Source: an uncultured Eubacteriales bacterium
GTDB lineage: Bacteria; Acidobacteriota; Aminicenantia; Aminicenantales; UBA8522
DNA length: 63,555 nucleotides
Assembly (NCBI GenBank): GCA_964580435.1
Contig: CAZOKP010000005.1
Coordinates: 5,613-69,167 of the forward strand
Reading direction: 5' to 3'
Shown here in pieces: positions 10,760 to 63,035 of the stretch. The notes beneath the pieces were generated by a model. It saw only the letters and a program-made list of their open reading frames with translations. It searched no databases and was not told the DNA's origin. The first letter of the stretch is position 1. Each line of letters begins with the position of its first letter. The translations under genes were made by a program, and so were the position numbers.

Positions 10760-10760
10760 T

Positions 10761-29120: not shown

Positions 29121-29134
29121 TTCTCGTCTCCGTC

Positions 29135-48537: not shown

Positions 48538-51500
48538 ATGCCAATTCCTGACGACTATGTTCTGGAAGAGGAAGAACAGTCCTACCAGAGCGAGCCGGCC
48601 GCCCGAGAAAAGACGACGAAGAGGCTCGTCTCGGACCTGGCTCACGTCCAGATAGAAAAGGCCTATTTCGAAAAGCTGTTTGAAGACGCCCAGGAGGGCA
48701 TTATCATCGCAGATAGAGAAGGCCATGTCCTCAAAGTGAACGGGGAATTCAAAAGAATGTTCGGGTTTGAAAACGACGAAATCGTCGGCCAAACCATTGA
48801 TAAACTCATTGCTCCCCGGGATAACCTCAATGCCGCCGTTAACATAACCCAGCGCGTCGCCAGCGGCGAGAAAGTCTCCTTTGAAACGCTCCGCCGCAGG
48901 AAAGACGGCCGGTCCATCCAAGTTTCGGTCATCGCCTCTCCGATCATTGAGGAGGGAAAGTTACAGGCCATTTTTGGCATTTACAGGGATATTTCCGAGC
49001 AGAAAAAAATCCTGCAGGAGCTCAAGAACTCAGAGATGAGATTTCAGGATATTGCCCTCAGCTCGGCCGACTGGATCTGGGAAATCGACAGGAACGGGAG
49101 GTATATTTTCGCTTCCGGCAGAGTCACACAGATCCTCGGGTACGACCGCGAAGAAATCCTCGGCAAGACGCCGTTTGACCTGATGCCCAAAACAGAAGCG
49201 GAGCGAGTCCGACATTTCTTTCAGGAAATCATGGCCGCAAAAAAGCCGGTCGTCGACCTGGAAAACTGGAACCTCACCCGGGATGGGAAATTGGTCTGCT
49301 TGCTGACGAACGCCCTGCCAATACTCGACGAAAAAAGCGGGCTTCTGGGCTACCGCGGCATGGACAAGGACATCACGGAAAGGAAGCGCACAGAAACGCA
49401 AATCTTAAGACAGAACCTTCTTTTGGACGGCATCAACAGGCTCCTGCAAAAAGTCTTTACGAAAGAGACGGATGCTGATTTGGCCGAGTTCTGTCTCCAC
49501 CTGGCTGAAGAACTCACGGGGAGCAAGTACGGATTCATCGGCGAGATCAATGACCAGAATAACCTGGATATTATCTCCATGAGTCACTTTGCCTGGGACG
49601 CCTGCACAATTCCCAAATCCAACGCGCCCCTGCTTCTGAAGAACATGAGAATCCGAGGAATATGGAGTGAGGCCATCAAATATGGCGAGACCCAGCTCAT
49701 CAACGCCCCGGATTCGCACCCGAGCCGGGTCGGATTTCCCAAAGGACATCCCACTCTTCAAACTCTACTCTGCGCGCCTCTGAAACATGCCGGTCATATT
49801 GTCGGCGTCATAGCCCTGGCCAACAAAGAATTCGGTTATGACAGGGATGATGAAAAGGCCGTAGAAGCTCTGGCGACGGCCTTCGTCGAGGCTCTGTACC
49901 GCAAAAGAGCTGAAGCGGCGATCCAGAGAGAGACGGCCAAGCTCTCGGCGATCATCACCGGAATTGACGAGGGGGTTCTTTTTGCAGACCAGGATGACAG
50001 GATCATCGAAATTAATGATTACTTTCTCAGACTCTTGGGGAAGAATAAACCGGAGATCCTGGGCAAGACTCTCTGGGACATCTATGTCGGAAAGCCGGAG
50101 GAAGACCTGAAAAAATATGTCGAGATCTTCAAGAAGGATTCGGGGGCTCCCCCCGTCGAAATTCAGAAAACCTTGGGCGAGAAAGAAGTCATTTTCAGGA
50201 TCAAGCCCATCCGCCGCAATGATCAATACGAAGGTCTTATCCTCAACGTGGCGGATGTTTCCGAACTCGTCCGGGCGCGCATAGAGGCCCTGACCGCCAA
50301 CAGAGTCAAAAGCGAGTTCTTGGCGAATATCAGCCACGAAATCCGCACCCCGATGAACGGGATTTTGGGCATGACCGACCTGGCCCTCGACACCCAGCTG
50401 ACTCCTGAGCAGAAAGAGTACTTGGGGGGGATCAAATCCTCGGCAGAGTCCCTGTTGAGCTTGATCAACGATATCCTTGATTTTTCCAAGATTGAAGCCA
50501 AAAAGCTCGAGCTGGAATCGACCGTCTTCAGCCTGGAAGACCTTCTCTTCGAGACCTTGGCCCCTCTCTCCATCCAGGCCCATCGAAACAAGCTCGACTT
50601 GGCCTGCGAGATCTCTCCGAGTCTGGATCCCGACCTCCTCGGCGACCCCGGCCGGCTCCGTCAGATCCTGGTCAACCTTATCGGCAACGCCATCAAATTC
50701 ACAGAAAAAGGCGCCGTGGTTGTCACGGTCGCTGAATCGACCCGGTCGGAGAAGGACGTCGTCCTCCATTTTACCATCGCCGACACGGGAATCGGCATTC
50801 CTGAGGAGAAGCAGAAGATCATTTTTGATGTCTTCGCCCAGGCCGACAGCTCCATGACCCGAAAATACGGCGGCACGGGCCTCGGTCTGGCGATTTCCTC
50901 CCAGTTGGTCGACCTGCTTGGCGGCAAAATTTGGGTGGAGAGCACGGTAGGAAAAGGCAGCAAGTTCCACTTCACCGCTCGCTTCGGAGTTCTCCAAGAC
51001 TCTGACGAGAGGAGAATAGCGCAGCCAAAACTCACCTTCATGAATCTGCCTCTTTTCTTGGTGGAGGATAACGCGAGCTGCCGGCGCATCCTCAGGGAAT
51101 TGACATCCGGCTGGGGTGCGAAAGTGAAAGAGGCCGAAAGCGCCGACGAAGCGACCGTCCTGCTCGATGAAGCTAAGGAAAAGAAAAAGCCTTTTCCTCT
51201 CATCCTTTTGGATGCCAATCTCCCGGGGCACGACAGTTTCATCATCCTCGATTACATCAAGAACAATCCGGATATCGCCAAGGCCATCATCATGATGATG
51301 GGCACAACGAGCAACCGCATTGACGCCACACCCTGGCTGAAGGTCGGGATTTCTGTTCACCTGAGCAAACCCATTAAGCCGACCGAGCTCAATAATAAGA
51401 TCTCCCAGGTGCTCGGGCTGGCTGCCACGTTCCCCAAGCCTGCGGAGGCGCCTGTTCCCGTAATCGCTGAGCCTGTCGCCCCTCAGGTTGAGCAGCGCCC

Positions 51501-51936
51501 GACCACATATCGCGTTCTTATCGCGGAAGACAATTTGGTCAATCAAAAGGTCGCTATCTACATGCTTGAAAAACAAGGCCATTCCGTAACAGGAGTGATG
51601 AATGGAGAAGAAACTCTGGCTGCGCTGGAGAAGGGGAATTTTGAGCTTATTCTGATGGACCTCCAGATGCCTAAAATGGACGGTTTTAAAGCCACCCAGT
51701 TGATCCGCCAGAAAGAAAAGGAAACAGGTCTTCACCTCCCGATCATTGCCATGACCGCGCACGCCATGAAAGGAGACCGCGAAAGATGCCTGCGCGCGGG
51801 AATGGATGAATATATCTCTAAGCCCCTGAACGTCAAGCAACTCGCTGACACGATCGCCCGGGTTATGAATAATGAGGTCCAGGGCCACGAGGAACCCCCG
51901 GGAACAGCGGAGGTAGCTGGTAAAAGAAGACAATGA
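48538..51936 (+). CDS. Cytoplasmic hybrid sensor histidine kinase (PAS-PAS-GAF-PAS-HisKA-HATPase-REC-REC)
   Basis: H-box FLANISHEIRTPMNG, N/G/F boxes, receiver Asp in LILLD and LILMD; no TM segment. Confidence 0.95.
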   Translation: MPIPDDYVLEEEEQSYQSEPAAREKTTKRLVSDLAHVQIEKAYFEKLFEDAQEGIIIADREGHVLKVNGEFKRMFGFENDEIVGQTIDKLIAPRDNLNAAVNITQRVASGEKVSFETLRRRKDGRSIQVSVIASPIIEEGKLQAIFGIYRDISEQKKILQELKNSEMRFQDIALSSADWIWEIDRNGRYIFASGRVTQILGYDREEILGKTPFDLMPKTEAERVRHFFQEIMAAKKPVVDLENWNLTRDGKLVCLLTNALPILDEKSGLLGYRGMDKDITERKRTETQILRQNLLLDGINRLLQKVFTKETDADLAEFCLHLAEELTGSKYGFIGEINDQNNLDIISMSHFAWDACTIPKSNAPLLLKNMRIRGIWSEAIKYGETQLINAPDSHPSRVGFPKGHPTLQTLLCAPLKHAGHIVGVIALANKEFGYDRDDEKAVEALATAFVEALYRKRAEAAIQRETAKLSAIITGIDEGVLFADQDDRIIEINDYFLRLLGKNKPEILGKTLWDIYVGKPEEDLKKYVEIFKKDSGAPPVEIQKTLGEKEVIFRIKPIRRNDQYEGLILNVADVSELVRARIEALTANRVKSEFLANISHEIRTPMNGILGMTDLALDTQLTPEQKEYLGGIKSSAESLLSLINDILDFSKIEAKKLELESTVFSLEDLLFETLAPLSIQAHRNKLDLACEISPSLDPDLLGDPGRLRQILVNLIGNAIKFTEKGAVVVTVAESTRSEKDVVLHFTIADTGIGIPEEKQKIIFDVFAQADSSMTRKYGGTGLGLAISSQLVDLLGGKIWVESTVGKGSKFHFTARFGVLQDSDERRIAQPKLTFMNLPLFLVEDNASCRRILRELTSGWGAKVKEAESADEATVLLDEAKEKKKPFPLILLDANLPGHDSFIILDYIKNNPDIAKAIIMMMGTTSNRIDATPWLKVGISVHLSKPIKPTELNNKISQVLGLAATFPKPAEAPVPVIAEPVAPQVEQRPTTYRVLIAEDNLVNQKVAIYMLEKQGHSVTGVMNGEETLAALEKGNFELILMDLQMPKMDGFKATQLIRQKEKETGLHLPIIAMTAHAMKGDRERCLRAGMDEYISKPLNVKQLADTIARVMNNEVQGHEEPPGTAEVAGKRRQ

Positions 51937-52865
51937 AGATACTCATCGCTGAAGATGACCCCATCAGCAGCAAGATTTTGGGAAAAAACCTCTCGAACTG
52001 GGGCTACAATGTCAGCCTGGCCAAGACCGGCGAAGAAGCCTGGGGCGCTCTCAAGGATGAAGATTTGCGCCTAGCGATCCTAGACTGGATGATGCCGGGG
52101 ATGGACGGCGTGGACATCTGCAAGAAGATCCGCCGCCGGAAAAGGAAAAAATACACCTATATCATCCTTCTGAGCGCCAAAGACCGAAAACAGGACATCA
52201 TCGCCGGACTTTCCTCCGGCGCGGACGATTACATGACCAAGCCGGTAAATTTTCTCGAGCTGAGGGCGCGCCTGAGAACGGGCGAGCGCATCATCGACCT
52301 CGAAGATAAGCTGATTCTCATCCAGAATCAGCTTAAAGATATCGCCAGCAGGGACAGCTTGACCAAGCTCTGGAACCGGGGCGAAATTATCAAATTTCTG
52401 CGTGAGGAGCTCGAGCGAGGCAGCAGAGATAAAAACGCGGTCGGGGTCATCATGCTGGACCTGGACTATTTCAAAAAGATCAACGACATCTTTGGCCACG
52501 ATATCGGGGATGTCGCTCTCCTTCAGGTTGTCTCACGAATCAAAAGAAAAGTGCGCAAATCAGATAAGGTGGGCCGCTATGGAGGGGACGAAATCGTCGT
52601 CATCCTGCCCAATTGCCCCCAATCGGAATTGTTTGAAATCGGCGAGCGCTTGCGCCTGTCCGTCGCACGTCGAGCCATTAAAACTGACCTGGATACGATC
52701 CCCATAACCATTTCTGCCGGCTGCGCCTGCTCGGATGATGTTCCGCAGCCAACGGCTGAGAAGCTCATCAGGGCTTCTGATGAGGCACTTCTGACAGCCA
52801 AAAGCCAGGGGCGTAACTGCGTCATCGTAAATAACGCATCTCACAAAGGACAGAAAAATGTCTAA
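51933..52865 (+). CDS. Response regulator-diguanylate cyclase (REC-GGDEF, WspR/PleD-like)
   Basis: IAEDD, ILDWMMP, KP; DLDYFKKIND, I-site RKSD, active site GGDEI. Confidence 0.92.
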   Translation: MKILIAEDDPISSKILGKNLSNWGYNVSLAKTGEEAWGALKDEDLRLAILDWMMPGMDGVDICKKIRRRKRKKYTYIILLSAKDRKQDIIAGLSSGADDYMTKPVNFLELRARLRTGERIIDLEDKLILIQNQLKDIASRDSLTKLWNRGEIIKFLREELERGSRDKNAVGVIMLDLDYFKKINDIFGHDIGDVALLQVVSRIKRKVRKSDKVGRYGGDEIVVILPNCPQSELFEIGERLRLSVARRAIKTDLDTIPITISAGCACSDDVPQPTAEKLIRASDEALLTAKSQGRNCVIVNNASHKGQKNV

Positions 52866-53250
52866 CCATCTTGATTCCAGCCAGGATCTGCCCATTGATT
52901 ATTCCGAAGTCCTCGAAAGAATCGGCGGAGACGAACTTTTCCTTGAAGAGCTCCTCAAAATCTACTTTGAAGAATTCAGCGAAAAAATTGCCCTGCTCCG
53001 AGAGGCCATCGAGCAGGGAAATTTCAGCCTGATCCAAGAACTTGGCCACTGTCTTAAGGGCGCCTCTGCCAACCTCAGCCTAGCCTCGCTGAAAAAAGCC
53101 TGCTTTGCTTTGGAAGTATCCGGACGCGAAAAGAACATCGAGCAAGCCCAGAGCGCCTTCCTCTCCCTGGGGACAGAATTCCAGAGACTCAAGAATTACC
53201 TTGAGGCGTCTCCCCTGAAAAATCGGGCCGCCCAGAGATTAGGGAAGTGA
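52858..53250 (+). CDS. Hpt (histidine phosphotransfer) domain protein
   Basis: LGHCLKGASANL. Confidence 0.9.
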   Translation: MSNHLDSSQDLPIDYSEVLERIGGDELFLEELLKIYFEEFSEKIALLREAIEQGNFSLIQELGHCLKGASANLSLASLKKACFALEVSGREKNIEQAQSAFLSLGTEFQRLKNYLEASPLKNRAAQRLGK

Positions 53251-54150
53251 TTTCCTTATGGAGCGGGCCAACGCCTGGAGATATCTAAGGCCCGTTTCTT
53301 CATAACCGTCCTTGATTCTCATCACTCCGAATATAACCTTCCCGGCCCTAGAGATATAGATATCTTGAGCGTAACGGTCTTTGATATGATAGCCAAGGGG
53401 AATTTCGTCAGGAGTCGGGTCGTTTTTCTGGTAAGCCGATAAATATTGCTTCATCATATCCGCCCCATCGGCTTCGCTTTTTCCCTCGATGATAAAAACG
53501 TCGAATTCAAGGTCCCCGTCTTTATAGCTCGCCAGATAGCCGTTATGAAGAAAGCTAAACCCCAAGACATTGCGGAGGATGAATTTCTCGCTATTGACAA
53601 TCAGTCCTTCTTTCGGAAAACGTTCCAGGAGAGGCGGCAGAGCTCCCTTCTCTTTCACCCTTTTGGCGATGTCCTGGGCAAACTGTTTCAAAACACTTTC
53701 CGAACTCTCTCCGCAGTCGTAACAAAGGAGTTTCACATAGTCGCTTCCGACAATAAAATTGAGGCTTCCTTCCTCTAGATATCCCTGATTGCCCACGGGT
53801 ATAAAGAGGCTCTCCGGATACCTCTCGGAGCTATAAATGCCGAAGGAATTCCTATCATTCCCCATATCATAAATTTCAAGCGTGAGGGAGCCCTTGGACA
53901 TTTCGTCCTGATACTGAGCCACGATGAGTTCCTTGAAGTCATAGCTCAAATAGGCCTCAGCCGCTCCATCGATGTATTCAAACAGCGTTGCCGGAAGAAA
54001 CGTCTGCGGTTTTTCTCGAAGCGTCCAACCCGAGACTTGAGGAAGAAGAGGCTGAAGAGGAGAACGACCGGCCTCCTGGCTGAATGCAGCGGGCAGCAAA
54101 AGGAAAAATAAGGCATAAAGCAGAGTTCTGGTCGGTTTTCTTTCGGCCAT
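53239..54150 (-). CDS. Exported hypothetical protein (DUF6599-like)
   Basis: Signal peptide from MAERKP (GGAGG RBS); LFEYIDGAAEAYLSYDF, LEIYDMG, FGIYS. Confidence 0.6.
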   Translation of the reverse strand: MAERKPTRTLLYALFFLLLPAAFSQEAGRSPLQPLLPQVSGWTLREKPQTFLPATLFEYIDGAAEAYLSYDFKELIVAQYQDEMSKGSLTLEIYDMGNDRNSFGIYSSERYPESLFIPVGNQGYLEEGSLNFIVGSDYVKLLCYDCGESSESVLKQFAQDIAKRVKEKGALPPLLERFPKEGLIVNSEKFILRNVLGFSFLHNGYLASYKDGDLEFDVFIIEGKSEADGADMMKQYLSAYQKNDPTPDEIPLGYHIKDRYAQDIYISRAGKVIFGVMRIKDGYEETGLRYLQALARSIRKSLP

Positions 54151-54263
54151 GGTGGACCTCCTTTTCTTCCAAAATCTCGTCTCAACTTTACTACACCGGG
54201 CGGGATTTTTCAAACGACCTCAGTTGACAGGTCCCTCAAAGAAGAGTAATTTTTCTAATCCGG

Positions 54264-55160
54264 ATGAACGAAGCCAAAGTCGCCGTAATTAGAGGAAAAG
54301 GGGTCCTCACTCGAGCGGGTGAATTGAGCCAGCTGAAGGTTGCTGAGATGATCCAGCGCGGTCTCCAAATCCTTACCGGGTTGCCTAATGCCGAGGACGC
54401 TCTCGGCCAGATTTTCGCCAGGAATGACCGCATCGGCATCAAAATCAATACCATCGGAGGCCGCAAGATCTCCACCCGGCCGGAAGTATCTCTGACCCTG
54501 GCCGATCTCCTGGTTAAAAGCGGTCTCCACGAACGGAACATCATCATCTGGGATCGCACCAACAGAGAGCTCAAAGATGCCGGCTATCGCCTGGCCTCAC
54601 CCTCAAACGGCCTGAAGGTTTTCGGCACGGACATGGATGGCGCAGGATATGAGACCGAGCTCGTATCTCATCTCAACATCGGAAGTCTTTTCTCCACAAT
54701 CCAGACCAATTTTGTTACCGCCTCGGTCAGCCTAGCCATTCTCAAAGACCACGGCCTGGCCGGGGTAACAGCGGGAATGAAAAACTATTTTGGCTCCATC
54801 CATAATCCTAATAAATACCATGATTCCCACTGCAACCCTTATGTTGCCGAGCTCTTTGATACAGACCCTATCAAGAGGAAACACAAGCTCTCCGTCCTCG
54901 ACGGACTGATCGTTCAATACCACCGCGGACCTTCCTATCATGCTCAGTGGGCGGAAGCTTGCGGAGTCCTTGTTTTTAGCCGCGACCCTGTTGCTGCTGA
55001 TTCAGTGGGCTGGCAGATGATCGAAAAACTGCGGGCCAAAAAGGGGCTTCCGTCGCTTCAAGAAGACAAAAGAGAACCGGCCTATCTTATGACAGCCGAG
55101 AAGATGGGACTTGGCCGGGCCGGAGTTGATCAAATCCAAATTATCGAGGATGAGGTATAA
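54264..55160 (+). CDS. DUF362 family protein
   Basis: IGIKIN, IIWDRT, LKDHGLAGVTAGMKNYFG, DPVAAD. Confidence 0.85.
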   Translation: MNEAKVAVIRGKGVLTRAGELSQLKVAEMIQRGLQILTGLPNAEDALGQIFARNDRIGIKINTIGGRKISTRPEVSLTLADLLVKSGLHERNIIIWDRTNRELKDAGYRLASPSNGLKVFGTDMDGAGYETELVSHLNIGSLFSTIQTNFVTASVSLAILKDHGLAGVTAGMKNYFGSIHNPNKYHDSHCNPYVAELFDTDPIKRKHKLSVLDGLIVQYHRGPSYHAQWAEACGVLVFSRDPVAADSVGWQMIEKLRAKKGLPSLQEDKREPAYLMTAEKMGLGRAGVDQIQIIEDEV

Positions 55161-55185
55161 TAGGATTATCAGGACAGTGTGGACC

Positions 55186-56307
55186 ATGGAAAGGCGGCAA
55201 TTCTTTAAGACCGTGGCCGGCTCGAGCCTTCTCTTGGGCGCAAACGCGGGAACCTTTCTCTGCGACCTTTTCGCGTTCCAGGACACTGCCAACCTCTCCC
55301 GAGTGGAAGCGCGTTATTACAAGAAACTTCCCGACAGGGAAATCGAATGCCAGCTCTGTCCTCGCAACTGCAAGCTGGGGGATAAAGAACGAGGATACTG
55401 CGGAGTCAGGGAGAACATCGGCGGGACGTACTATACGTTGGTCTATGGCAAAGCCTGCACCGCCAATGTTGACCCTATCGAGAAAAAACCGTTCTTCCAT
55501 TTTCTGCCCGGCAGCAAGGCTTTTTCCATCGCCACAGCCGGCTGCAATCTCAACTGCAAGTTCTGCCAGAACTGGCAGATCTCTCAAGTGAGGGCGGAAC
55601 AGGTCACGCCGTTGGACCTGCCCCCCCAGGATGTCGTCGTCAATGCCCTCAGCTACAAGTGCCCCAGCATTTCCTACACCTACACAGAGCCCATCGTTTA
55701 CTTCGAGTATATGTATGACACGGCCATCCAGGCGCGTACTAAGGGAATAAAGAATTGCGTCGTCACGGCGGGACATATCAACCGAGAGCCCCTCCTGGAC
55801 CTGGTCAAGGTCGTCGACGCCATCAAGATCGACCTGAAGTCTTTCAGCCAAAATTTTTATGCAAATTATGTCCGCGGCGAACTCCAGCCGGTTCTTGAAG
55901 CTATAAGAACCGTACACCAAAGCAAGGTCTGGCTGGAGCTTGTCTATCTGGTCATCCCCACCCTGAATGACGACGTTGAAGGGATCCGCGAGATGAGCCA
56001 ATGGATCAGAAAAGAAATCGGGCCCGACGTCCCGCTCCATTTTTCGCGGTTTCAACCGATGTATCTCGTGCAAAATCTCCCCCCCACTCCCATCTCGACT
56101 TTGGAGAAAGCGCACGATATCGCCCTGGATGAGGGGCTCCATTATGTTTACATCGGCAACGTTCCTGGGCATAAAGCGGAAAGTACCTTCTGCCCCCGTT
56201 GTCAAAACGTGATCATTGAGAGAGTGGGCTTCGAGGTCAATAGAATAGACCTCGACGGCGGAAAGTGCAAATTCTGCCACAACCCTATTCCCGGAATCTG
56301 GGCTTGA
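55186..56307 (+). CDS. AmmeMemoRadiSam-type radical SAM enzyme with twin-arginine leader
   Basis: ERRQFFK leader; CQLCPRNC; DPIEKKPFFHF; CNLNCKFCQNW (CxxxCxxC); YTYTEP; YIGNV. Confidence 0.9.
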   Translation: MERRQFFKTVAGSSLLLGANAGTFLCDLFAFQDTANLSRVEARYYKKLPDREIECQLCPRNCKLGDKERGYCGVRENIGGTYYTLVYGKACTANVDPIEKKPFFHFLPGSKAFSIATAGCNLNCKFCQNWQISQVRAEQVTPLDLPPQDVVVNALSYKCPSISYTYTEPIVYFEYMYDTAIQARTKGIKNCVVTAGHINREPLLDLVKVVDAIKIDLKSFSQNFYANYVRGELQPVLEAIRTVHQSKVWLELVYLVIPTLNDDVEGIREMSQWIRKEIGPDVPLHFSRFQPMYLVQNLPPTPISTLEKAHDIALDEGLHYVYIGNVPGHKAESTFCPRCQNVIIERVGFEVNRIDLDGGKCKFCHNPIPGIWA

Positions 56308-58439
56308 CCAATTATCTTCCTCCGTTTCTGCTCGGGTTTCTGGCCACTTCCTTCCAAATCCTGCTGCTGCGGGAATTCTCCGCCCATTTCTACGGGAATG
56401 AAATGATGATCGGAATCGTCCTGGCCTCCTGGCTTCTCTGGGGAGGTCTCGGCAGCCTAACGGCTCCGAAAATTAAGTTCAAGGCAAAGCATCTGCCGTA
56501 TATTTATGGCCTGGTCATTCTTCTCTTCCCCGTCTCGCTCATAGGCGTCAGGTTTTCCAGATTTATGCTGCATCTTCTTCCCGGTGAGCTCACCGGAATG
56601 ACTTCCGTCCTCTTCATCTCTCTCGGTTTTTGTTTTCTCGTCAGTTTTCCTTTAGGAATCCTTTTTGTCTTCAACGTCAGCCGCATCGGAGGCCGGATTA
56701 CTCAGGTCTATATATTTGAATCGCTCGGCGCCGCGACGGCAGGATTGATCGTTCACTGGCTTCTCGTCCCTTATTTCTCCGCCTGGCTGGCCGTTTCTCT
56801 GGTCGGCGCGGCGGGCGCTCTGTTCATCTCCTTCGCAGCGGCAAAAAAGCCGCCGTGGCTCTTTTTGGGGTTTATCCTGGTTTTCCTGGCAGGATTCGGC
56901 CTCTTTGACCTTCCCAGTCAAAAGATCTACTGGAAGCCGTTCAATCTTATCGCCAGCAAGGACACCCGTTACGGAAGGCTCCAGGTCATCCAAACCCAGG
57001 AACAAATTTCTCTCTACAGCAACGGCTTCCAGGCCTATTCGTATCCAAATCCTGCCGCCGCCGAGGAGTCCGTCCATTTTGCCCTGCTTCAAAATCCGGA
57101 GGCTCGATCTGCACTCCTCATCGGGGGCGGGGCGGGAGGAAGCCTGAAAGAAATGCTCAAATACCCTCGGGTCGAAGTCGATTATGTCGAGTTGGACCCC
57201 GAGATTATCCGCTTATCCCGAAGATTTTTGAGCCCTGAGGAAAGGACTATTTTGGGCGGTGAGCGGGTTCACCTATTCTTTCAAGACGGGAGAGCTTTTC
57301 TCCAGAAATCAGCAAAAAAATTCGAATTCATCATCCTGATCCTGCCGGAGCCAGCCACAGCCCAGCTCAATCGGTTTTACACGAGAGAATTTTTTTGTCT
57401 GGCCAAGGAAAAGCTCGACCCGAACGGCGTTTTTTCCTTTACCGTTCCCTCGGCCGAAAACTATATCAGCCCCGCCCTTCAGCAGTTTCTCTCCTCTCTT
57501 TATTTCACTCTGACAAGCGTTTTCACGGAAGTGAAAGTCGTGCCCGGGGACAGAAATATTTTTCTCGCCTCTTCCCGTCCCCTGTCTCTCAATACTGCTG
57601 ATCTCGGCCAAAGAATCGAGTCCTATCACCTGGACAACCTTTATGTAAACCCTTCCTTTCTCGCGTCCCGGCTTCATTCTCTCAGGGTCGATTACTTGGA
57701 AAGCATGTTGAAGTCAGGAGATAAGAGGCTCAACCGCGACCTTGTTCCCGTGAGCTTTTTTTTTCACGCGGTCCTCTGGAGCACGCAGTTCAATAGCCTG
57801 GACTCAAAGATATTGGGCTCCTTGTCCGGGCTTTCTTTTTTTTGGCTGCTTGATTTCCCTCTTCTTCTCTTTGTGCTCCTGCTTCTTTTTTTATACATCA
57901 AAAGGAAAACAACCAGCTTTTTCTTGACGCCTCTTGTGGTCATGGGCCTGACGACGATCGCAGTGGAAATCATTCTGCTCGTCTGGTTTCAAGCGCTCTA
58001 CGGCTATCTTTATGGGCGGATTGCCCTACTTCTAACCGCCTTTATGTTTGGGCTCTTCCTGGGGAGCCTGGCAAGCTCAAGAATCAAAGACGCATCGTTC
58101 AGACATCTCATTATTGTCCAGTCCGGGTTTCTGGTCGTCCTGGTTCTTTTTCAGCTGACCCTGGAGGCAGCTCCCCCCGAGTTCCTGGCGTTTCTTTTCC
58201 TTCTGCTCTTTGGCTCTCTCGGCGGCGCTCTTTTTATCGTTTCTAACCGGCTTTATCTCCGAGAAAAAAGCAATTACGGAATCGGCTATGGACTCGACCT
58301 GGGGGGCTCTTTTCTCGGGGCCTTTGTGACTTCTTCCGTTCTAATCCCCCTCGTCGGATTGCCCCTTCTTTTGAGATATCTCCTTCTCCTGAATTCTTTT
58401 TGCTTTCTGTTCCTTCTGCTCCGCCCCAAAAATCCTTGA
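56304..58439 (+). CDS. Polytopic membrane protein with central spermidine-synthase-like SAM-binding domain
   Basis: TTG start overlapping the rSAM stop; about 7 TM, LLIGGGAGG/VELDPE/DGRAFL domain, then about 6 TM. Confidence 0.85.
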   Translation: MTNYLPPFLLGFLATSFQILLLREFSAHFYGNEMMIGIVLASWLLWGGLGSLTAPKIKFKAKHLPYIYGLVILLFPVSLIGVRFSRFMLHLLPGELTGMTSVLFISLGFCFLVSFPLGILFVFNVSRIGGRITQVYIFESLGAATAGLIVHWLLVPYFSAWLAVSLVGAAGALFISFAAAKKPPWLFLGFILVFLAGFGLFDLPSQKIYWKPFNLIASKDTRYGRLQVIQTQEQISLYSNGFQAYSYPNPAAAEESVHFALLQNPEARSALLIGGGAGGSLKEMLKYPRVEVDYVELDPEIIRLSRRFLSPEERTILGGERVHLFFQDGRAFLQKSAKKFEFIILILPEPATAQLNRFYTREFFCLAKEKLDPNGVFSFTVPSAENYISPALQQFLSSLYFTLTSVFTEVKVVPGDRNIFLASSRPLSLNTADLGQRIESYHLDNLYVNPSFLASRLHSLRVDYLESMLKSGDKRLNRDLVPVSFFFHAVLWSTQFNSLDSKILGSLSGLSFFWLLDFPLLLFVLLLLFLYIKRKTTSFFLTPLVVMGLTTIAVEIILLVWFQALYGYLYGRIALLLTAFMFGLFLGSLASSRIKDASFRHLIIVQSGFLVVLVLFQLTLEAAPPEFLAFLFLLLFGSLGGALFIVSNRLYLREKSNYGIGYGLDLGGSFLGAFVTSSVLIPLVGLPLLLRYLLLLNSFCFLFLLLRPKNP

Positions 58440-58516
58440 GAGGCGGTTTGACATCATTGCCCTTCTGTGCTAATAGGTAACGCCTTTGGTGTCATATCCA
58501 GATAGTCCCAAAGAGA

Positions 58517-59308
58517 ATGGACGGCTTAGACACAAATCGCGAAAAAGAGAACCTTGTCCTCGTCAACGCCTACTTGACCAATAGCTTGGTCTTGAAAGGG
58601 TTCATCGATTATCTGAGCCGCTTTTTCAACGTCTATTTCATCGACCTTCCGGGTTTCATCCAAGATGTCCCTCCGCTTGCCCAAATCTCCATCGAAAGCT
58701 ATGCCGGATATGTCCAGAAAAGACTTGAACGGCTGAACCTTAAGAGCTTTATCCTCGGGGGCATTTCTTTTGGGTTTCTGGTCGCGAGCCATATGCCGCA
58801 AGATCAAAGATGCAAGGGACTTGTCGCTATCGCTCCTTATATCAATTCCCGCTCGCTCAAGCTGGGATTCCTGAAAATGTCCGTCTACTCGCTCCTTGTT
58901 CATCTGACCCTGACCTTCAACATGTCTACTAAGATATGGGAAAGCCGCCATTTCCATCGGGCTTTTCATTGGTACAGCGACTATCCTGCCGAACGAATCA
59001 ATAACCTTTTGAGCCATATGGACGGGAGGACCTTTTTTGAAACCGCAAGGATCATCCTGGGACACCGCGAGCCCTGCCCCTTTCACGCGTTGCCCTATGT
59101 CCTCATCATCAGTTCTTCCGACAAAACCATCAAGAACGATCCTCTCCTGAAACTTTTTGCGAAGAACGTCGAAAACCTGAAAGTGCTGGAAGTCGGCACG
59201 GATCACTATCCTCTGGATATCAGCGCAGACTATTTTAAGAAAAGAATTCCTGAGGAACAAATCAAAGACATCATTCTTTTTGTCAACGGAAAAGCAGCCC
59301 GGAATTAA
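58517..59308 (+). CDS. Alpha/beta hydrolase fold protein
   Basis: IDLPGF, GISFG nucleophile elbow, late Asp (SDK) and His (TDH). Confidence 0.8.
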   Translation: MDGLDTNREKENLVLVNAYLTNSLVLKGFIDYLSRFFNVYFIDLPGFIQDVPPLAQISIESYAGYVQKRLERLNLKSFILGGISFGFLVASHMPQDQRCKGLVAIAPYINSRSLKLGFLKMSVYSLLVHLTLTFNMSTKIWESRHFHRAFHWYSDYPAERINNLLSHMDGRTFFETARIILGHREPCPFHALPYVLIISSSDKTIKNDPLLKLFAKNVENLKVLEVGTDHYPLDISADYFKKRIPEEQIKDIILFVNGKAARN

Positions 59309-59331
59309 GAGCCCGGGTCGGGCAAATTTTC

Positions 59332-59360
59332 TTGACAGGAAATCAAATTTATGTTTTACT
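59332..59360 (+). promoter_or_regulatory. Sigma-70-type promoter TTGACA-N17-TTTACT
   Basis: Consensus -35, extended TG, upstream of hdrC. Confidence 0.55.
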
Positions 59361-59435
59361 GGAAAGTCATTTTTGGCATGACAATTTCTCAAAGAGATAG
59401 ATATCTCGCCATCCAATCTTGAAAGAGCAAAACAC

Positions 59436-59843
59436 ATGAGAATCAACATATCCAAGAAAAAAATCAGGGACCCTTTTGTCCAAAAGATCGAGGAACTGAG
59501 CGGCCAGAAGCTTCTCGCCTGTTATCAGTGCGGCAAATGCTCAGCTGGGTGCCCCGCGGTGTCCCAGATGGATATCTTGCCCAATCAAATCATCCGCTTC
59601 GCCCAGCTCGGGCTGAAAGAGGAGCTCCTCGAATCCAAATCCATCTGGGTCTGCGCCTCCTGCTACACCTGCAACGTCCGCTGTCCCAAGGGGATAAAAA
59701 TAGCTGAAGTGATGGAAGCCCTCAGGCAGGTCCTGCTGCGCAAAAGATGCGACCATGTCGAAATCCCCAAACTCACCAACGAAGAAAAGGCCAGCGTGCC
59801 AGCCATCGCCTTAATCAGCAATTTCCGGAAATTCACGTCTTGA
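59436..59843 (+). CDS. hdrC: Heterodisulfide reductase subunit C-like 2x[4Fe-4S] protein
   Basis: CYQCGKCSAGCP and CASCYTCNVRCP. Confidence 0.88.
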   Translation: MRINISKKKIRDPFVQKIEELSGQKLLACYQCGKCSAGCPAVSQMDILPNQIIRFAQLGLKEELLESKSIWVCASCYTCNVRCPKGIKIAEVMEALRQVLLRKRCDHVEIPKLTNEEKASVPAIALISNFRKFTS

Positions 59844-59866
59844 CAGAGAGATGTTAAGGAATCACG

Positions 59867-60745
59867 ATGAAAATAAGCTACTACCCGGGTTGCACCTTAA
59901 AAAGCAATGCCAAGAACTTTGAAGACTCCGCGCTATGCTCCTTAAAAGAGCTTGGGGTTGACGTCCAGGAGCTCAAGCGCTGGAACTGCTGCGGGACCGT
60001 CTATTCCCTGGCGACTGACGATCTGATGCATCATCTTGCCTCTATCCGCAACCTGATCCGCGTCAAAGAAGCCCAGACAGATTCGGTGATGACTCTTTGT
60101 GCCATGTGCTACAACACCCTGAAGAGAGTCAACGAGAGGATCAAAGCCGACCCGGAAAGCCTGGAAAAAATCCACAAATTCATGGATGAGGAAAAAGTCT
60201 CCTACGAGGGCGATGTTAAAGTCCGTCATCTGCTGGAACTTTTGCGGGACGATATCAAATTCGAGAACATCACCAGGAAGGTCCGAAAGCCCCTGAAAAG
60301 CCTTAAGGTTGCCAGCTATTATGGCTGCCTTCTGGTCCGTCCCAAAGAGATCGGGTTTGATGACCTGGAAAATCCCCGGATTCTCGACGACCTGATGACC
60401 GCCCTGGGCGCTAAGTCCGTGGATTTCCCGTATAAGACAGAATGCTGCGGTGCTTATCAGACGGTCGATAAGCCCGAAATCATTGCCGAGAGGACATACG
60501 GCATCCTGACCTCCGCCCGGAACCAGGGGGCCGAGGTCGTCGCCGTAAGCTGCCCTCTCTGCGCGTTCAACCTGGATCATCGGCAAAAAGAGACGACTCA
60601 GAAATACTCGGAATTCAAGAAAATGCCGATTCTCTACTTCACCCAAATCATGGCCATCGCTCTGGGGTGTGAGGAAAAAGACCTCCGTTTTGACCTTCAT
60701 TATGTTAACCCCAAGCCGCTGCTCGAACAGAAAGGCTTGATCTGA
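59867..60745 (+). CDS. hdrB: Heterodisulfide reductase subunit B-like (two CCG domains)
   Basis: YYPGC...CCG...CAMC and YYGC...CCG...CPLC. Confidence 0.9.
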   Translation: MKISYYPGCTLKSNAKNFEDSALCSLKELGVDVQELKRWNCCGTVYSLATDDLMHHLASIRNLIRVKEAQTDSVMTLCAMCYNTLKRVNERIKADPESLEKIHKFMDEEKVSYEGDVKVRHLLELLRDDIKFENITRKVRKPLKSLKVASYYGCLLVRPKEIGFDDLENPRILDDLMTALGAKSVDFPYKTECCGAYQTVDKPEIIAERTYGILTSARNQGAEVVAVSCPLCAFNLDHRQKETTQKYSEFKKMPILYFTQIMAIALGCEEKDLRFDLHYVNPKPLLEQKGLI

Positions 60746-60752
60746 GGAAAAA

Positions 60753-61028
60753 ATGATCCACTTTGGCGATCTCAAGGCTAAAAAAGGCACCATTCATATC
60801 AACAAGGAACGATGCAAAGGTTGCGGGTTTTGTGTGGAATACTGTCCCAGGGACGTCCTCGAACTCTCCGAAGAATTCAACAAGAAGGGCTACCATCCGC
60901 CCCGTATCGTAAAAGAAGAAGAATGCTGTTATTGCCAACTCTGTGAAGCGATCTGCCCGGAGTTCGCCCTGTTTGTCACACTCAAGAAAGAGGAGGAAGA
61001 AGGTGAAAAAAGTGAAAGCCGACCCTAA
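60753..61028 (+). CDS. korD: 2-oxoacid:ferredoxin oxidoreductase delta subunit (2x[4Fe-4S] ferredoxin)
   Basis: CKGCGFCVEYCP, KGYHPP, CCYCQLCEAICP. Confidence 0.85.
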   Translation: MIHFGDLKAKKGTIHINKERCKGCGFCVEYCPRDVLELSEEFNKKGYHPPRIVKEEECCYCQLCEAICPEFALFVTLKKEEEEGEKSESRP

Positions 61029-62169
61029 GGGAGTCTTAACCGGATCCCATTATCTGGACGGCGACTTTGCCATAGCCGAGGGCGCGCTGGCAGCCGGCTG
61101 CCGTTTTTTTGCGGGTTACCCGATTACGCCTTCCACGGAAACGGCGGAAAGGTTTGCCGAGCGGATTCCCTTTGTTGGCGGAGTTTTTATACAGATGGAG
61201 GATGAGATTGCCTCTATCACGGCGTTGATCGGAGCCTCCTGGGCTGGCCAGAAAGCCATGACGGTGACTTCCGGACCAGGATTTTCCTTGATGATGGAGA
61301 ATATCGGGCTGGCCTGCATGATGGAAGCTCCGCTTGTCATCGCTAACGTCCAGAGGGGCGGGCCCTCCACGGGGCTTCCCACCCTGGTCGGCCAAGGTGA
61401 CATGATGCAGGTCAAGTGGGGCTCCCACGGCGATTTCAGGATCATCGCCCTCTCCCCCGATTCTCCCCAAGAGTGTTTTGACCTCACCATCAAGGCCTTC
61501 AACCTCGCGGAATTGTACCGGGTTCCTGTTTTTGTCATGACGGACGAGTGCGTCGGCCACATGCATGAAAAAGTCGTGATCCCCGCTGCTGACCAGATCG
61601 AGGTCGTCGAACGGAAATGGTACAAGGGGCCGAAAGACAAGTACCTCCCCTACAAGCCGGACAAAGACAAGGTCCCCTTCATGGTCAAAGCGGGTGACGG
61701 CTACCGCTTCCACACGACCGGACTCACCCATGATGAAAGGGGCTACCCTGCGATTAACGCCGAATGCCAGGATGTCTGCGTCCGCCACCTGGTGGATAAG
61801 ATCGATAATAACGCTGATAAAATCATCGAATACCAAGAAGACCAGACAGACAATGCCGATGTCGTGGTCATATCCTACGGCATCACCTCAAGGGTCGCGA
61901 CCAAGGCGATTCAAGAGGCCAGAAAGTCCGGTATTAAAGTGGGAACCATGCGGTTGATCACAGTCTGGCCTTTCCCGGAGAAACGGATCAAGGAGCTGGC
62001 CAAAAAAGTCAAGGCGTTCGTCATCCCGGAGCTAAACCTGGGTCAGGTCCGCATGGAGGTGGAACGCTGCGCCTTTGGCCAGGCCCCGGCCATCGGAGTA
62101 GGCCATTGCGGCGGCTGGGTCCATGACCCCGATGACATTCTCAAAGCCATCAAGGAGGCAGCCCGATGA
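61003..62169 (+). CDS. korA: 2-oxoacid:ferredoxin oxidoreductase alpha subunit
   Basis: AGYPITPSTE, QMEDEIA, TSGPG, QRGGPSTGLPT; GTG start at 61003. Confidence 0.93.
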   Translation: MKKVKADPKGVLTGSHYLDGDFAIAEGALAAGCRFFAGYPITPSTETAERFAERIPFVGGVFIQMEDEIASITALIGASWAGQKAMTVTSGPGFSLMMENIGLACMMEAPLVIANVQRGGPSTGLPTLVGQGDMMQVKWGSHGDFRIIALSPDSPQECFDLTIKAFNLAELYRVPVFVMTDECVGHMHEKVVIPAADQIEVVERKWYKGPKDKYLPYKPDKDKVPFMVKAGDGYRFHTTGLTHDERGYPAINAECQDVCVRHLVDKIDNNADKIIEYQEDQTDNADVVVISYGITSRVATKAIQEARKSGIKVGTMRLITVWPFPEKRIKELAKKVKAFVIPELNLGQVRMEVERCAFGQAPAIGVGHCGGWVHDPDDILKAIKEAAR

Positions 62170-63035
62170 AAGAAGAACCCCGGCTCGAAGAACGTAACCC
62201 GATAGAGAATTTCTTGAGGATGGACCGCATCCCCCACATCTGGTGTCCTGGGTGCGGCATCGGAACGGTCGTGACCTCTTTTGCCGAAGCCCTGCGCAAG
62301 AGTCAGATCGATTTGAGCAAGGTCGCCGTGGTCTCCGGCATCGGCTGCACTGGAAGGGTCGCCGGCTATGTCAAGCTCGATTCGTTCCACAGCACTCACG
62401 GCCGGGCCATCCCCTTTGCCACCGGACTGAAGTTGGCCAATCCTGAACTCAAGGTCGTCGTTTTCAGCGGCGACGGCGATATCGCAGGCATCGGCGGCAA
62501 TCATCTCATCCACGCCGCTCGGCGCAACATGGACCTCGTGGTCATCTGCGTCAACAACTTCAACTACGCGATGACGGGAGGGCAGGTTGCGCCCACAACA
62601 CCGATTCAGGCCAACCTTTCCACCGCCCCTTACGGCAATTTCGAGTATCCTTTTAACCTGCCTTATCTGGCCGAAGCCTGCGGCGCGACTTATGTGGCCC
62701 GCTGGACGGCTTTGCATCTGCGCAGAGTTACCAAGTCCATCCAGGAGGCGCTGGGCAAAAAGGGTTTCTCTTTCATCGAGGTCATCACGCCATGTGTCAC
62801 CCTTTACGCCCGCCGCAACAGGCTGGGAGACGGGCTCAACCTGATGAAATACTACTACGAGAACTGCGACATCCAACACGGCGCTGATACCCGCACGCTG
62901 GCCATCGACTTTCAAGCGAAATTCGTTGTCGGCAAATTCATCGATAAGGATAAACCGACTTTTCTCGAATGCATGAATACTCATCTGCAGAAAGCCTTGG
63001 GCGAAAAATACGTCCCCTATGGAGTCAAGCCATGA
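62166..63035 (+). CDS. korB: 2-oxoacid:ferredoxin oxidoreductase beta subunit (TPP-binding)
   Basis: WCPGCG, SGIGC, HGRAIP, GDGD, NNFNYAMTGGQ. Confidence 0.94.
   Translation: MKEEPRLEERNPIENFLRMDRIPHIWCPGCGIGTVVTSFAEALRKSQIDLSKVAVVSGIGCTGRVAGYVKLDSFHSTHGRAIPFATGLKLANPELKVVVFSGDGDIAGIGGNHLIHAARRNMDLVVICVNNFNYAMTGGQVAPTTPIQANLSTAPYGNFEYPFNLPYLAEACGATYVARWTALHLRRVTKSIQEALGKKGFSFIEVITPCVTLYARRNRLGDGLNLMKYYYENCDIQHGADTRTLAIDFQAKFVVGKFIDKDKPTFLECMNTHLQKALGEKYVPYGVKP

Follow-up and report, generated by a model that had tools for sequence, protein, structure and literature searches.

The locus comprises a gene for a DUF6599 protein on the minus strand and, on the plus strand, a tight operon of three genes that encode a DUF362 protein, a radical SAM enzyme of the AmmeMemoRadiSam type (rSAM in the following) and a membrane protein with a domain resembling spermidine synthase (SpeE). 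Together they occupy positions 53239-58439 of the 63,555-nucleotide stretch of DNA that was analysed as a whole (the window; Table 1). All four genes proposed by the initial annotation are present and in the order described there, with rSAM downstream of DUF362 and its stop codon overlapping the start of the membrane-protein gene by 4 nt (cTTGA), as is the case in 711-aa homologues. The rSAM gene is predicted to be co-transcribed with DUF362 and translationally coupled to the membrane-protein gene, for which TTG 56304 is the most likely start; initiation at GTG 56265 would yield a protein of 724 aa.

Table 1. Features of the DUF6599/DUF362/rSAM/membrane-protein locus (positions refer to the window)
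Feature	Position	Strand	Assignment or remark
DUF6599 protein, 303 aa	53239..54150	-	PF20244, E 6e-47
Divergent intergenic region DUF6599/DUF362, 113 nt	54151..54263		Between divergent genes
DUF362 protein, 298 aa, operon gene 1	54264..55160	+	PF04015, E 1.4e-17
AmmeMemoRadiSam-type radical SAM enzyme, 373 aa	55186..56307	+	TIGR04337; PF04055
Putative Tat signal region of rSAM, residues 1-41	55186..55308	+	MERRQFFK; RR codons 55192-55197
14-helix membrane protein, 711 aa	56304..58439	+	PF01564, E 4e-24; 7 TM + SpeE-like domain + 7 TM
Spermidine-synthase-fold domain	56943..57743	+	Foldseek to 1uir
Alpha/beta-hydrolase ORF	58517..59308	+	PF00561, E 1e-9; 77 nt past the membrane-protein gene

The divergent gene encodes a predicted exported protein, in line with the initial annotation: DUF6599 (160 bits against a Pfam gathering threshold of 27) is translated from ATG 54150, with AAGGAGG upstream, and its N-terminus MAERKPTRTLLYALFFLLLPAAFSQ is a Sec-type signal. 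The gene also adjoins the cluster in three other Aminicenantes loci (L001-L003), and weaker or more distant homologues are found at L015, L016 and L024; as judged from these comparisons, DUF6599 is an accessory partner restricted by lineage. The intergenic region between the divergent genes presumably holds their promoters; an Rfam search of this region gave zero matches and a scan for consensus promoters nothing above background level. The alpha/beta-hydrolase ORF past the operon is missing from the corresponding position in L001-L003, and it is doubtful that it is a member of the system.

The assignment of the central enzyme is clear, with 375.3 bits against TIGR04337 (cut-off 220; ORF residues 67-397 matched), a PF04055 match (E 1.4e-17) and a CxxxCxxC motif at C120/C124/C127 (nt 55543-55566) that is invariant in the alignment of homologues. 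The only sequence relatives in the PDB are pyruvate formate-lyase activase entries (3c8f, E 8e-10; 8fo0, E 2.5e-9), and glycyl-radical activases such as PFL-AE also provide the next-best HMMs, but all of these scores fall far under the family cut-offs, and rSAM has extra N- and C-terminal Cys motifs which are typical of TIGR04337. A role as PFL activase itself was rejected, with TIGR02493 at 61 against a cut-off of 232 and a window devoid of any glycyl-radical enzyme.

The TIGR04337 model begins at rSAM residue 42, and residues 1-41 (MERRQFFKTVAGSSLLLGANAGTFLCDLFAFQDTANLSRVE) form an N-terminal extension. The start of this extension, M-E-R-R-Q-F-F-K and a hydrophobic stretch, had been read as a twin-arginine (Tat) signal, and this reading is upheld by translation and by conservation among homologues, although the segment that follows E-R-R-Q-F-F-K (TVAGSSLLLGANAGTFL) is only mildly hydrophobic and rich in Gly, Ala, Ser and Leu. 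A start downstream of the two arginines is contradicted by the conservation of the extension and by a Shine-Dalgarno sequence (AGGA) 11 nt 5' of ATG 55186, which is absent upstream of the alternative GTG 55303. Among 20 aligned homologues M-x-R-R-x-F-[FL]-K is nearly invariant, as are R3, R4 and F6. The Tat motif is shared by 109 of 120 close homologues, and RR signals occur in 104 of 115 distant ones obtained as profile matches, whose source names include Acidobacteriota, Planctomycetia, Brocadiales, Calditrichaeota, Zixibacteria and Pseudomonadota; many representatives of 50%-identity clusters, at 37-55% identity, also begin with RR signals. As 4 of the 59 ORFs of the window have a loose Tat-like motif, which is chance level, the motif alone would be weak evidence; its conservation across phyla, more than ten for this clade, makes it more than chance. 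A second good Tat candidate in the window is an amidohydrolase (18604-20307) that starts with MDRRTFLKQ.

Substrates of the Tat pathway are exported folded and loaded with their cofactors. Tat-exported Fe-S proteins such as hydrogenase small subunits, DmsB/HybA-type ferredoxins and Rieske proteins have N-terminal leaders of the S/T-R-R-x-F-L-K type similar to that of rSAM, and share with it the need to receive Fe-S clusters in the cytoplasm. In contrast to rSAM, these proteins serve electron transfer and require no nucleotide co-substrate outside the cell. No radical SAM enzyme is known to us among the Tat Fe-S substrates, and none was found in the searchable literature, nor was a published description of an exported rSAM cluster found. 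The rSAM signal is followed by no clear A-x-A site but by a conserved L-[YF]-A-F, a possible cleavage site, so that the leader may be cleaved after Ala or be retained as an anchor.

Conservation of the neighbourhood was assessed with a comparison set of 87 related loci. Fifty of 88 loci belong to the Tat class and 12 more have a hydrophobic signal on rSAM; in twelve related loci, mostly from Omnitrophota, rSAM has Sec-like instead of Tat signals, which are hard to reconcile with Fe-S loading in the cytoplasm. DUF362, rSAM and the SpeE-domain membrane protein (TM-SpeE) recur together in Planctomycetia-like, Zixibacteria-like and Acidobacteriota-like contigs, far beyond Aminicenantes and with different flanks. 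TM-SpeE lies within 10 kb of rSAM in 37 of 61 signal-bearing comparison loci and in 2 of the 21 that had been assigned to the signal-less class (Fisher p = 3.8e-5). Both exceptions actually have M-T-R-K-E-F-L signals, and the corrected split with the window included is 39/63 for signal-bearing against 0/19 for signal-less rSAM.

The membrane protein had been described as having roughly 13 TM segments, a count which has to be revised to 14 on the basis of an AlphaFold model (pLDDT 90.4, pTM 0.90) with seven helices on either side of the SpeE-like domain. The K/R-rich loops all lie opposite this domain (about 20.7 K+R on one side against about 3.7 on the other in 35 homologues), and the model together with the positive-inside rule predicts a periplasmic location for it. 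The full SpeE fold of SpeE, PRK03612 and NF037959 proteins is present, with a TM-score of 0.75 to T. thermophilus SpeE (1uir; Foldseek E 1e-13, ~280 aligned columns), and the N-terminal membrane helices are as in PRK03612. The domain keeps adenosyl-binding motifs, having the GGG loop, the ribose-binding acidic residue and the DG motif of SpeE, and has lost the aspartates of aminopropyl transfer: GGGDG/GGGEG is replaced by GGGAGG, at a position that is variable in the family, which removes the Asp that selects decarboxylated SAM (dcSAM), and the D-x-x-D-P loop (I-D-L-T-D-P in 1uir) by I-L-P-E-P (family consensus N-L-P-x-P), so that both of its aspartates are absent. A polyamine aminopropyltransferase was rejected, as these catalytic aspartates and the dcSAM-selecting acid are missing and the equivalog HMMs score far under their cut-offs; NF037959 reaches 36.6 against a cut-off of 40, in a match confined to the SpeE part.

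Membrane-bound SpeE proteins also differ in architecture, since the window domain sits between two 7-helix halves and is predicted to be periplasmic. PGAP names the homologues 'fused MFS/spermidine synthase', but the membrane part has no Pfam match to MFS (best MFS_3, E 0.39). A possible internal repeat would relate TM1-6 to TM9-14 (hhalign E 0.011), and a Foldseek search with a half-model of low confidence (pLDDT 66) ranked MFS proteins at the top with E values of at least 0.5. The membrane gene of these clusters should not be annotated as a spermidine synthase; it appears to be dedicated to the putatively exported rSAM as its partner.

DUF362 (64.9 bits, gathering threshold 24) adjoins the Tat-rSAM in 19 of 50 Tat-class loci and in none of 21 loci without the extension; 18 of the 61 signal-bearing comparison loci have it when the window is excluded. 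In 11 of 17 loci the protein has an RR signal of its own, but signal peptides are absent from the window protein, and the DUF362 proteins of Aminicenantes and Zixibacteria do without the Tat signal found in other phyla. It is solely on account of these signal-less copies that export of DUF362 by hitch-hiking on a Tat substrate, as the initial annotation had suggested, appears plausible. The accompanying idea of DUF362 as Fe-S support is without basis, because 17 aligned cluster-associated proteins conserve KDH...IHNPNKYH and no multi-Cys motif, and DUF362 is included in a LarA-related Pfam clan (PMC11770544).

Conservation of AMMECR1 and Memo extends from bacteria to humans, and both have been connected with human disease; we know of no biochemical function for either of them. 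Their neighbourhood with TIGR04337 enzymes, AmmeMemoRadiSam, was first noted by Balaji & Aravind 2007 (PMC2034487). Searches of 20 window ORFs of 150-340 aa and the amidohydrolase ORF gave zero matches to either domain, the remaining ORFs of this size near the cluster being identified through synteny, and both are absent from the 63.5-kb window and from L001-L003. The earlier statement that the two partners are not in the window is thus accurate, but they are not missing from the system: in 20 of 50 Tat-class loci the Tat-rSAM of this clade has a Memo-AMMECR1 fusion as its neighbour. Fusions beside signal-bearing rSAMs start with Sec or lipobox signals, which Memo proteins beside signal-less rSAMs (L061, L084) do not have. 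The cluster therefore resembles the three-gene AmmeMemoRadiSam system in its rSAM, which scores well over the family cut-off, and in the pairing of rSAM with Memo-AMMECR1 at related signal-bearing loci. It differs in the Tat signal on rSAM, the Sec or lipoprotein signal on Memo-AMMECR1, the two added conserved partners DUF362 and TM-SpeE, and the absence of Memo and AMMECR1 from the window. RNA base modification, which has been suggested in print as the function of the canonical system, could not be the function of a system that is exported.

Several close rSAM relatives have domains fused to their N-termini, namely DsbD_2, FMN_bind, Fer4_5, a beta-propeller and a CBM_11-like domain, and in four of them (P0142, P0145, P0123, P0133) the membrane helix is absent between the fused domains and the rSAM domain. 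In NqrC, RnfG and NosR the FMN_bind domain lies outside the cytoplasm. Modules of the NosR/NapH type, FMN_bind domains of the RnfG/NqrC type and DsbD/CcdA modules are physically joined to sister rSAM proteins, and an outside-facing rSAM might by analogy receive its electrons in this way. The window encodes no DsbD-, FMN_bind- or NosR-type module, and no low-potential donor was identified in it.

Five independent comparative lines, all computational, support rSAM as a Tat substrate and the cluster as an extracytoplasmic module: the Tat signal, the neighbourhood, the export signals of the partners, the topology of the SpeE-like domain, and the fusions to extracytoplasmic electron-transfer and binding domains. 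The core of the initial annotation's proposal, a periplasmic radical SAM module, is thus well supported by comparison; the part it gave to DUF362 in Fe-S chemistry is not, and a membrane protein supplying or handling SAM would be conjecture. We consider it somewhat better than an even chance (about 55%) that the cluster represents, in Aminicenantes, a widespread, undescribed exported variant of AmmeMemoRadiSam which works as follows. The rSAM would acquire its [4Fe-4S] cluster(s) before leaving the cytoplasm, already folded, by way of Tat, with DUF362 in the Aminicenantes lineage possibly as its passenger. On the outside of the cytoplasmic membrane it would then act together with the periplasmic SpeE-like domain and, in other lineages, also with the lipoprotein Memo-AMMECR1 fusion. 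The membrane protein, which would resemble two 6-helix bundles with two connecting helices, may transport SAM through the membrane and then present it, or may bind and return the nucleoside product; we know of no periplasmic SAM pool, SAM source or SAM exporter. The electron source would be a carrier in the membrane or periplasm, the counterpart of the DsbD-like, FMN_bind or NosR-type module fused to sister rSAMs, and the substrate would be an envelope molecule, most likely a lipid, isoprenoid or glycan.

The strongest alternative, although an unlikely one, is that the radical chemistry is cytoplasmic, with rSAM as a maturase of itself or of a partner exported along with it, for example DUF362, and that Tat carries the finished complex to the periplasm as its destination, SAM having been cleaved beforehand. 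Both SAM and the flavodoxin or ferredoxin are located in the cytoplasm, the signal-less DUF362 of the window and of Zixibacteria could be the passenger, the enzyme family is nearest to protein-activating enzymes such as PFL-AE, and a cytoplasmic-looking, flavodoxin-like FMN_red gene adjoins rSAM at two loci (L006, L023). Against this, Memo-AMMECR1 could meet rSAM only outside, because Sec and lipoprotein substrates are exported unfolded; the nucleotide-binding SpeE-like domain is also predicted to be outside, and the modules fused to sister rSAMs, FMN_bind and DsbD-like, deliver electrons there.

Next in order, and likewise improbable, is a twin-arginine motif that is not an export signal, either as a vestigial or chaperone-binding leader of the kind known from cytoplasmic enzymes such as NarG (with NarJ) or as an N-terminal membrane tether that would keep a cytoplasmic enzyme beside the membrane protein. 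The mild hydrophobic region without a clear A-x-A site and the lack of any known periplasmic SAM source agree with it. It fits poorly with the retention of the full R-R-x-F-[FL]-K motif and hydrophobic region in more than ten phyla, with Tat, Sec or lipobox signals occurring independently on the partners, with the association of TM-SpeE being limited to signal-bearing rSAMs, and with the positive N-terminus before the hydrophobic segment, which predicts the C-terminus outside. An annotation artefact, that is an ordinary cytoplasmic enzyme starting at GTG 55303 or phylum-level synteny devoid of functional linkage, is very improbable, for although this GTG sits exactly at the start of canonical family members and the flanking genes are syntenic too within Aminicenantes, the Shine-Dalgarno sequence precedes the ATG and not the GTG, the 41-residue extension is conserved as protein with invariant RR, and the three genes are found together in unrelated phyla amid other flanking genes.

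Few enzyme superfamilies are as large as that of the radical SAM enzymes, whose dependence on SAM, a low-potential reductant and Fe-S assembly is the reason that they are regarded as confined to the cytoplasm. A large and phylogenetically broad clade with export or outward-facing features on every component would break this rule, and an exported AmmeMemoRadiSam variant suggests that chemistry held to be strictly cytoplasmic may run outside the cytoplasm too. Such a clade would also raise testable questions about the routes by which SAM and electrons reach the periplasm. More tentatively, and with the odds somewhat against it, many anaerobic phyla may possess a whole extracytoplasmic pathway composed of Tat-rSAM, lipoprotein Memo-AMMECR1, a Tat-exported DUF362 cofactor protein, a dedicated transporter-like protein with a periplasmic SpeE-like domain that passes SAM to the enzyme or recovers 5'-deoxyadenosine, electrons from DsbD, FMN_bind or NosR modules, and an envelope lipid, isoprenoid or glycan as target. 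Such a pathway would be unprecedented both as radical-SAM chemistry outside the cytoplasm and as a dedicated route by which SAM is used across the bacterial inner membrane. An exported version also gives a new handle on AMMECR1 and Memo, as it argues for a substrate other than nucleic acid at least in these lineages. For database annotation, the 'fused MFS/spermidine synthase' genes in these clusters can be corrected as lacking the catalytic residues of an aminopropyltransferase.

From its sequence, the cluster is best read as a version of the AmmeMemoRadiSam system that is exported. The names carried by its nearest homologues assign the organism to Aminicenantes. Five genes were found at window 53239-59308 by ORF listing and HMM scans. 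The start codon of the DUF6599 gene is preceded by a strong AAGGAGG, and its product begins with a Sec-type signal, MAERKPTRTLLYALFFLLLPAAFSQ. The operon is tight, with a gap of 25 nt between DUF362 and the radical SAM enzyme (rSAM), and the TTG at 56304, which overlaps the rSAM stop codon (cTTGA), is most likely the start of the large membrane protein. The same 4-nt overlap is present in the gene calls of two syntenic Aminicenantes loci (L002, L003), and most homologues have the 711-aa form. No SAM or other riboswitch was found upstream of the operon, and promoter and terminator scans of the cluster stayed at background level. The alpha/beta-hydrolase ORF is wholly covered by a longer antisense ORF, with Pfam support for the plus-strand ORF only.

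Genes of the cluster and other features discussed in the text (window positions unless a compared locus is named)
Feature	Position	Strand	Family match or detail
DUF6599 protein	start ATG 54150	-	PF20244, E 6e-47
DUF362 protein	54264-55160	+	PF04015
rSAM	55186-56307	+	TIGR04337 "AmmeMemoRadiSam system radical SAM enzyme", 375 bits (cut-off 220)
Large membrane protein (TM-SpeE)	56304 or 56265 to 58439	+	central Spermine_synth domain, PF01564
Alpha/beta hydrolase	58517-59308	+	weakly supported
ORF antisense to the hydrolase	58526-59455	-	309 aa
Hybrid sensor kinase, REC-GGDEF response regulator, Hpt protein	48538-53250	+	kinase 1132 aa, PAS/GAF/HisKA/REC
HdrC/HdrB-like pair, small ferredoxin, 2-oxoacid:ferredoxin oxidoreductase subunits	59436-63035	+	pair with Fer4_8 and CCG domains
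Amidohydrolase	18604-20307	-	567 aa; PF07969, PF01979
DUF192 protein	28647-29138	-	
rSAM paralogue, L073 (Candidatus Aminicenantes bacterium JdFR-80)	9926-11002		canonical, extension-less
FMN_red flavodoxin-like protein, L006	8327-8905	+	no signal peptide
FMN_red flavodoxin-like protein, L023	7271-7849	+	no signal peptide

As the TIGR04337 model starts at residue 42 of the ATG-initiated rSAM, residues 1-41 form an N-terminal extension, in which M-E-R-R-Q-F-F-K is followed by a mildly hydrophobic stretch rich in Gly, Ala, Ser and Leu. This ATG has an AGGA 11 nt ahead of it, with nothing comparable before GTG 55303. The query is covered end to end by all of the best 120 homologues, 109 of which carry the Tat motif, and M1, R3, R4 and F6 are nearly invariant in an alignment of 20 homologues. 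A start at GTG 55303, which would give a canonical, extension-less protein, was rejected on the position of the Shine-Dalgarno sequence together with the conservation of the extension at the protein level. The Tat signal proposed in the initial annotation is thereby upheld, and a true start downstream of the RR motif, which would have undone it, is not borne out. A loose Tat-like motif occurs in 4 of the 59 window ORFs; therefore, the motif alone proves little and its conservation carries the argument. Elsewhere in the window, the amidohydrolase begins MTMKKKMDRRTFLKQTAKAATLASLSGC, in which a good Tat motif precedes a lipobox-like Cys; Tat therefore appears to serve other proteins of this organism too. 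The DUF192 protein starts with an RR-containing, lipoprotein-like leader, MKRRYLLTLSLCLLFCSGQ.

A full HMMER scan over 1.84 billion cluster representatives found RR signals on many of the closest ones (50%-identity clusters at 37-55% identity), with extension-less canonical members first seen at about 46% identity. A profile built from 24 signal-bearing representatives recovered 115 new proteins, the motif being present in 104, with source names covering Acidobacteriota, Planctomycetia, Brocadiales, Calditrichaeota, Zixibacteria and Pseudomonadota. Of the two remaining hits with a source name, P0289 ("bacterium BMS3Bbin03", MDRRKFLEK) has the motif and no phylum assignment, and P0372, from Calescamantes, shows a Sec-like N-terminus lacking it. 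At 88 loci, 80 of them from GTDB species genomes and all analysed with our own ORF calling and HMMs, the rSAM N-termini comprised 50 of Tat type, 12 hydrophobic and Sec-like (mostly Omnitrophota), 21 without extension, among them archaea and several Desulfobacterota, and 5 unclear. Carrier MAGs were found in Bacteroidota (Prolixibacteraceae, Sunxiuqinia) and Desulfobacterales. Sec-type signal peptides such as MKKSLLLLILLLSVLFPAIGA were noted in L027, L030, L031, L035, L041, L042, L045, L046, L051, L058 and L068. Since Sec translocates unfolded chains, such a leader is a paradox on an enzyme with Fe-S clusters; this minority would have to gain its Fe-S clusters outside the cytoplasm, a standing difficulty for reading the rSAM as an exported enzyme. 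The extension-less paralogue of L073, which lies among unrelated genes (endonuclease III-like, ribonucleotide reductase), indicates that exported and cytoplasmic types can share one phylum.

Within Aminicenantes, the genes for DUF6599, DUF362, rSAM and the membrane protein are syntenic, and since their flanks are syntenic as well, this alone is no proof of functional linkage. As far as gene order can show it, such linkage is shown by four distant contigs: one Planctomycetia-like (DUF362, Tat-rSAM and a 792-aa TM-SpeE, the membrane protein with its central SpeE-like domain), one Zixibacteria-like (DUF362-rSAM and a 612-aa TM-SpeE), one Acidobacteriota-like (a Memo-AMMECR1 fusion joining both canonical partner families, DUF362, Tat-rSAM, a flavodoxin-like protein and a 780-aa TM-SpeE) and a fourth with DUF362, Tat-rSAM and the Memo-AMMECR1 fusion. 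Mere phylum-level synteny was rejected once other phyla had been sampled. Among the 61 signal-bearing comparison loci, which leave out the window, 37 had TM-SpeE within 10 kb of rSAM, versus 2 of 21 classed as signal-less (Fisher p = 3.8e-5). These two exceptions, L060 and L082, have M-T-R-K-E-F-L leaders missed by the search pattern; with both reclassified and the window included, the figures become 39/63 versus 0/19, all neighbour counts being lower bounds as many loci are cut off by contig ends. TM-SpeE lay no more than 300 nt from rSAM in 19 non-Aminicenantes loci. The 50 Tat-class loci include 19 with DUF362 (18 within the comparison set of 61), all others being without it. The neighbourhood anticipated by the initial annotation therefore recurs outside Aminicenantes. 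In control loci, signal-less rSAMs sit among unrelated housekeeping genes, so that an rSAM lacking Memo and AMMECR1 beside it is in itself nothing out of the ordinary. The FMN_red flavodoxin-like protein adjoins the Tat-rSAM in L006 and lies about 2 kb upstream in the unrelated L023. A periplasmic 5'-deoxyadenosine/MTA nucleosidase was considered and rejected, as the PNP_UDP_1 gene beside rSAM in L004 lacks a signal and is not recurrent.

The AlphaFold model of the membrane protein, with 45 homologues as input (pLDDT 90.4, pTM 0.90), runs from seven helices through a SpeE fold at about residues 214-480 and two short helices to a further seven. A many-helix protein with a SAM-binding domain had been noted in the initial annotation; its helix number of roughly 13 gives way to 7+7. 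Averaged over 35 homologues from many phyla, Lys and Arg amount to about 20.7 per protein in the N-terminus, loops 2-3, 4-5, 6-7, 8-9, 10-11 and 12-13 and the C-terminus, against about 3.7 in the short loops on the opposite side. As a single helix separates the SpeE domain from each K/R-rich loop (AAKKPP, YIKRKT), the positive-inside rule places the domain outside the cytoplasm, and it is accordingly predicted on the periplasmic side. Foldseek matched a complete SpeE fold (1uir, TM-score 0.75). Compared with 1uir and the family, the protein retains GGG, the acidic residue that binds ribose (VELDP) and the DG(R) motif. In place of the acidic residue of GGG(D/E)G that selects dcSAM, the window protein has Ala, at a position that varies in the family, and the D-x-x-D-P catalytic loop reads I-L-P-E-P (family consensus N-L-P-x-P). 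With these changes the domain is not a canonical aminopropyltransferase, though binding of an adenosyl compound is probably retained. The alignment of helices 1-6 with 9-14 is weak (hhalign E 0.011). PGAP names the homologues "fused MFS/spermidine synthase"; no significant MFS match for the membrane part was obtained with Pfam (E up to 10), NCBIfam or Foldseek of a low-confidence AlphaFold half-model (helices 1-6).

The partner proteins carry export signals of their own. Eleven cluster-associated DUF362 proteins have clear RR leaders (e.g. TRREFIRD, KRREFLK, MNRRSFLQ, MRRRAFFK, TSRRDFLKE), which are missing from the Aminicenantes and Zixibacteria copies. A frequent Tat signal implies that DUF362 would fold before export, perhaps loading a cofactor first, and it is a reasonable idea that the signal-less Aminicenantes protein hitch-hikes on rSAM. 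The Fe-S role initially ascribed to DUF362 is unsupported, since an alignment of 17 cluster-associated copies contains no cysteine cluster motif. Conserved across these copies are KDH and (A/S)IHNPNKYH, a Lys/His placement reminiscent of the residues that bind the cofactor in the related LarA family, whose N-terminal domain belongs to the same Pfam clan (PMC11770544). No PDB sequence relatives were found for DUF362, and nothing meaningful for DUF6599, which occurs at 7 of 88 loci, of Acidobacteriota type only, and is probably a lineage-specific exported accessory. Memo-AMMECR1 fusions of ~500 aa beside signal-bearing rSAMs have an N-terminal Sec signal peptide, many with a lipobox Cys (LVPGC, PLGC, PAGC, FTDC, VNAC); beside signal-less rSAMs (L061, L084), the catalytic domain of Memo begins at the very start.

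A neighbourhood of AMMECR1, rSAM and dioxygenase (Memo) genes has been on record since 2007 and was predicted to act in RNA base modification (PMC2034487). What the comparison shows is a set of sequence features and how far they are conserved, together with linkage of the genes and a predicted topology; export itself, the electron source, the substrate and the role of the membrane protein are inferred. On this reading, rSAM would be loaded before leaving the cytoplasm through Tat and would act at the periplasmic face with the SpeE-like domain, the membrane protein would deliver SAM or remove product, and the lipoprotein Memo-AMMECR1 fusion, where present, would be a further partner. The main rival, in which rSAM completes catalysis before export, is weakened by the Sec-signal and lipoprotein partners and by the outward-facing SpeE-like domain, and both points also weaken a secondary reading of the leader as a vestigial or tethering sequence. 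Export of the enzyme would challenge the assumed confinement of radical SAM chemistry to the cytoplasm and give an experimental way into AMMECR1 and Memo function. The literature search found no paper on a Tat-signal radical SAM enzyme, the four-part cluster or the fused MFS/spermidine synthase; the survey by Burroughs et al. 2019 (J Biol Chem 294:10211), said to cover Memo gene contexts, lay outside the search for the first two.

In close rSAM relatives (46-52% identity) the N-terminal fusion partners are DsbD_2 transmembrane electron-transfer domains (P0131, P0134, P0138), FMN_bind domains (P0134, P0137, P0142, P0145), NapH/NosR-type Fer4_5 membrane ferredoxins (P0134, P0137), a Reg_prop/PorZ-type beta-propeller (P0123) and a CBM_11-like domain (P0133). 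P0134 (1055 aa) joins DsbD_2, FMN_bind, Fer4_5 and rSAM in one chain, and P0142, P0145, P0123 and P0133 have a single N-terminal helix and none between the fused domains and rSAM. In NqrC, RnfG and NosR the FMN_bind domain lies outside the cytoplasm, and DsbD/CcdA pass reducing power to the outside. The fusions are independent evidence that the clade sits at the membrane's outer face or farther out, and they suggest how an exported rSAM might be reduced. The genes that follow the cluster, from the HdrC/HdrB-like pair to the oxidoreductase subunits, are syntenic in L001-L003 and all cytoplasmic-looking; low-potential electrons could come from them. Directly upstream, the sensor kinase, REC-GGDEF and Hpt genes are syntenic in L002 and L003 and may be linked to the cluster by regulation.
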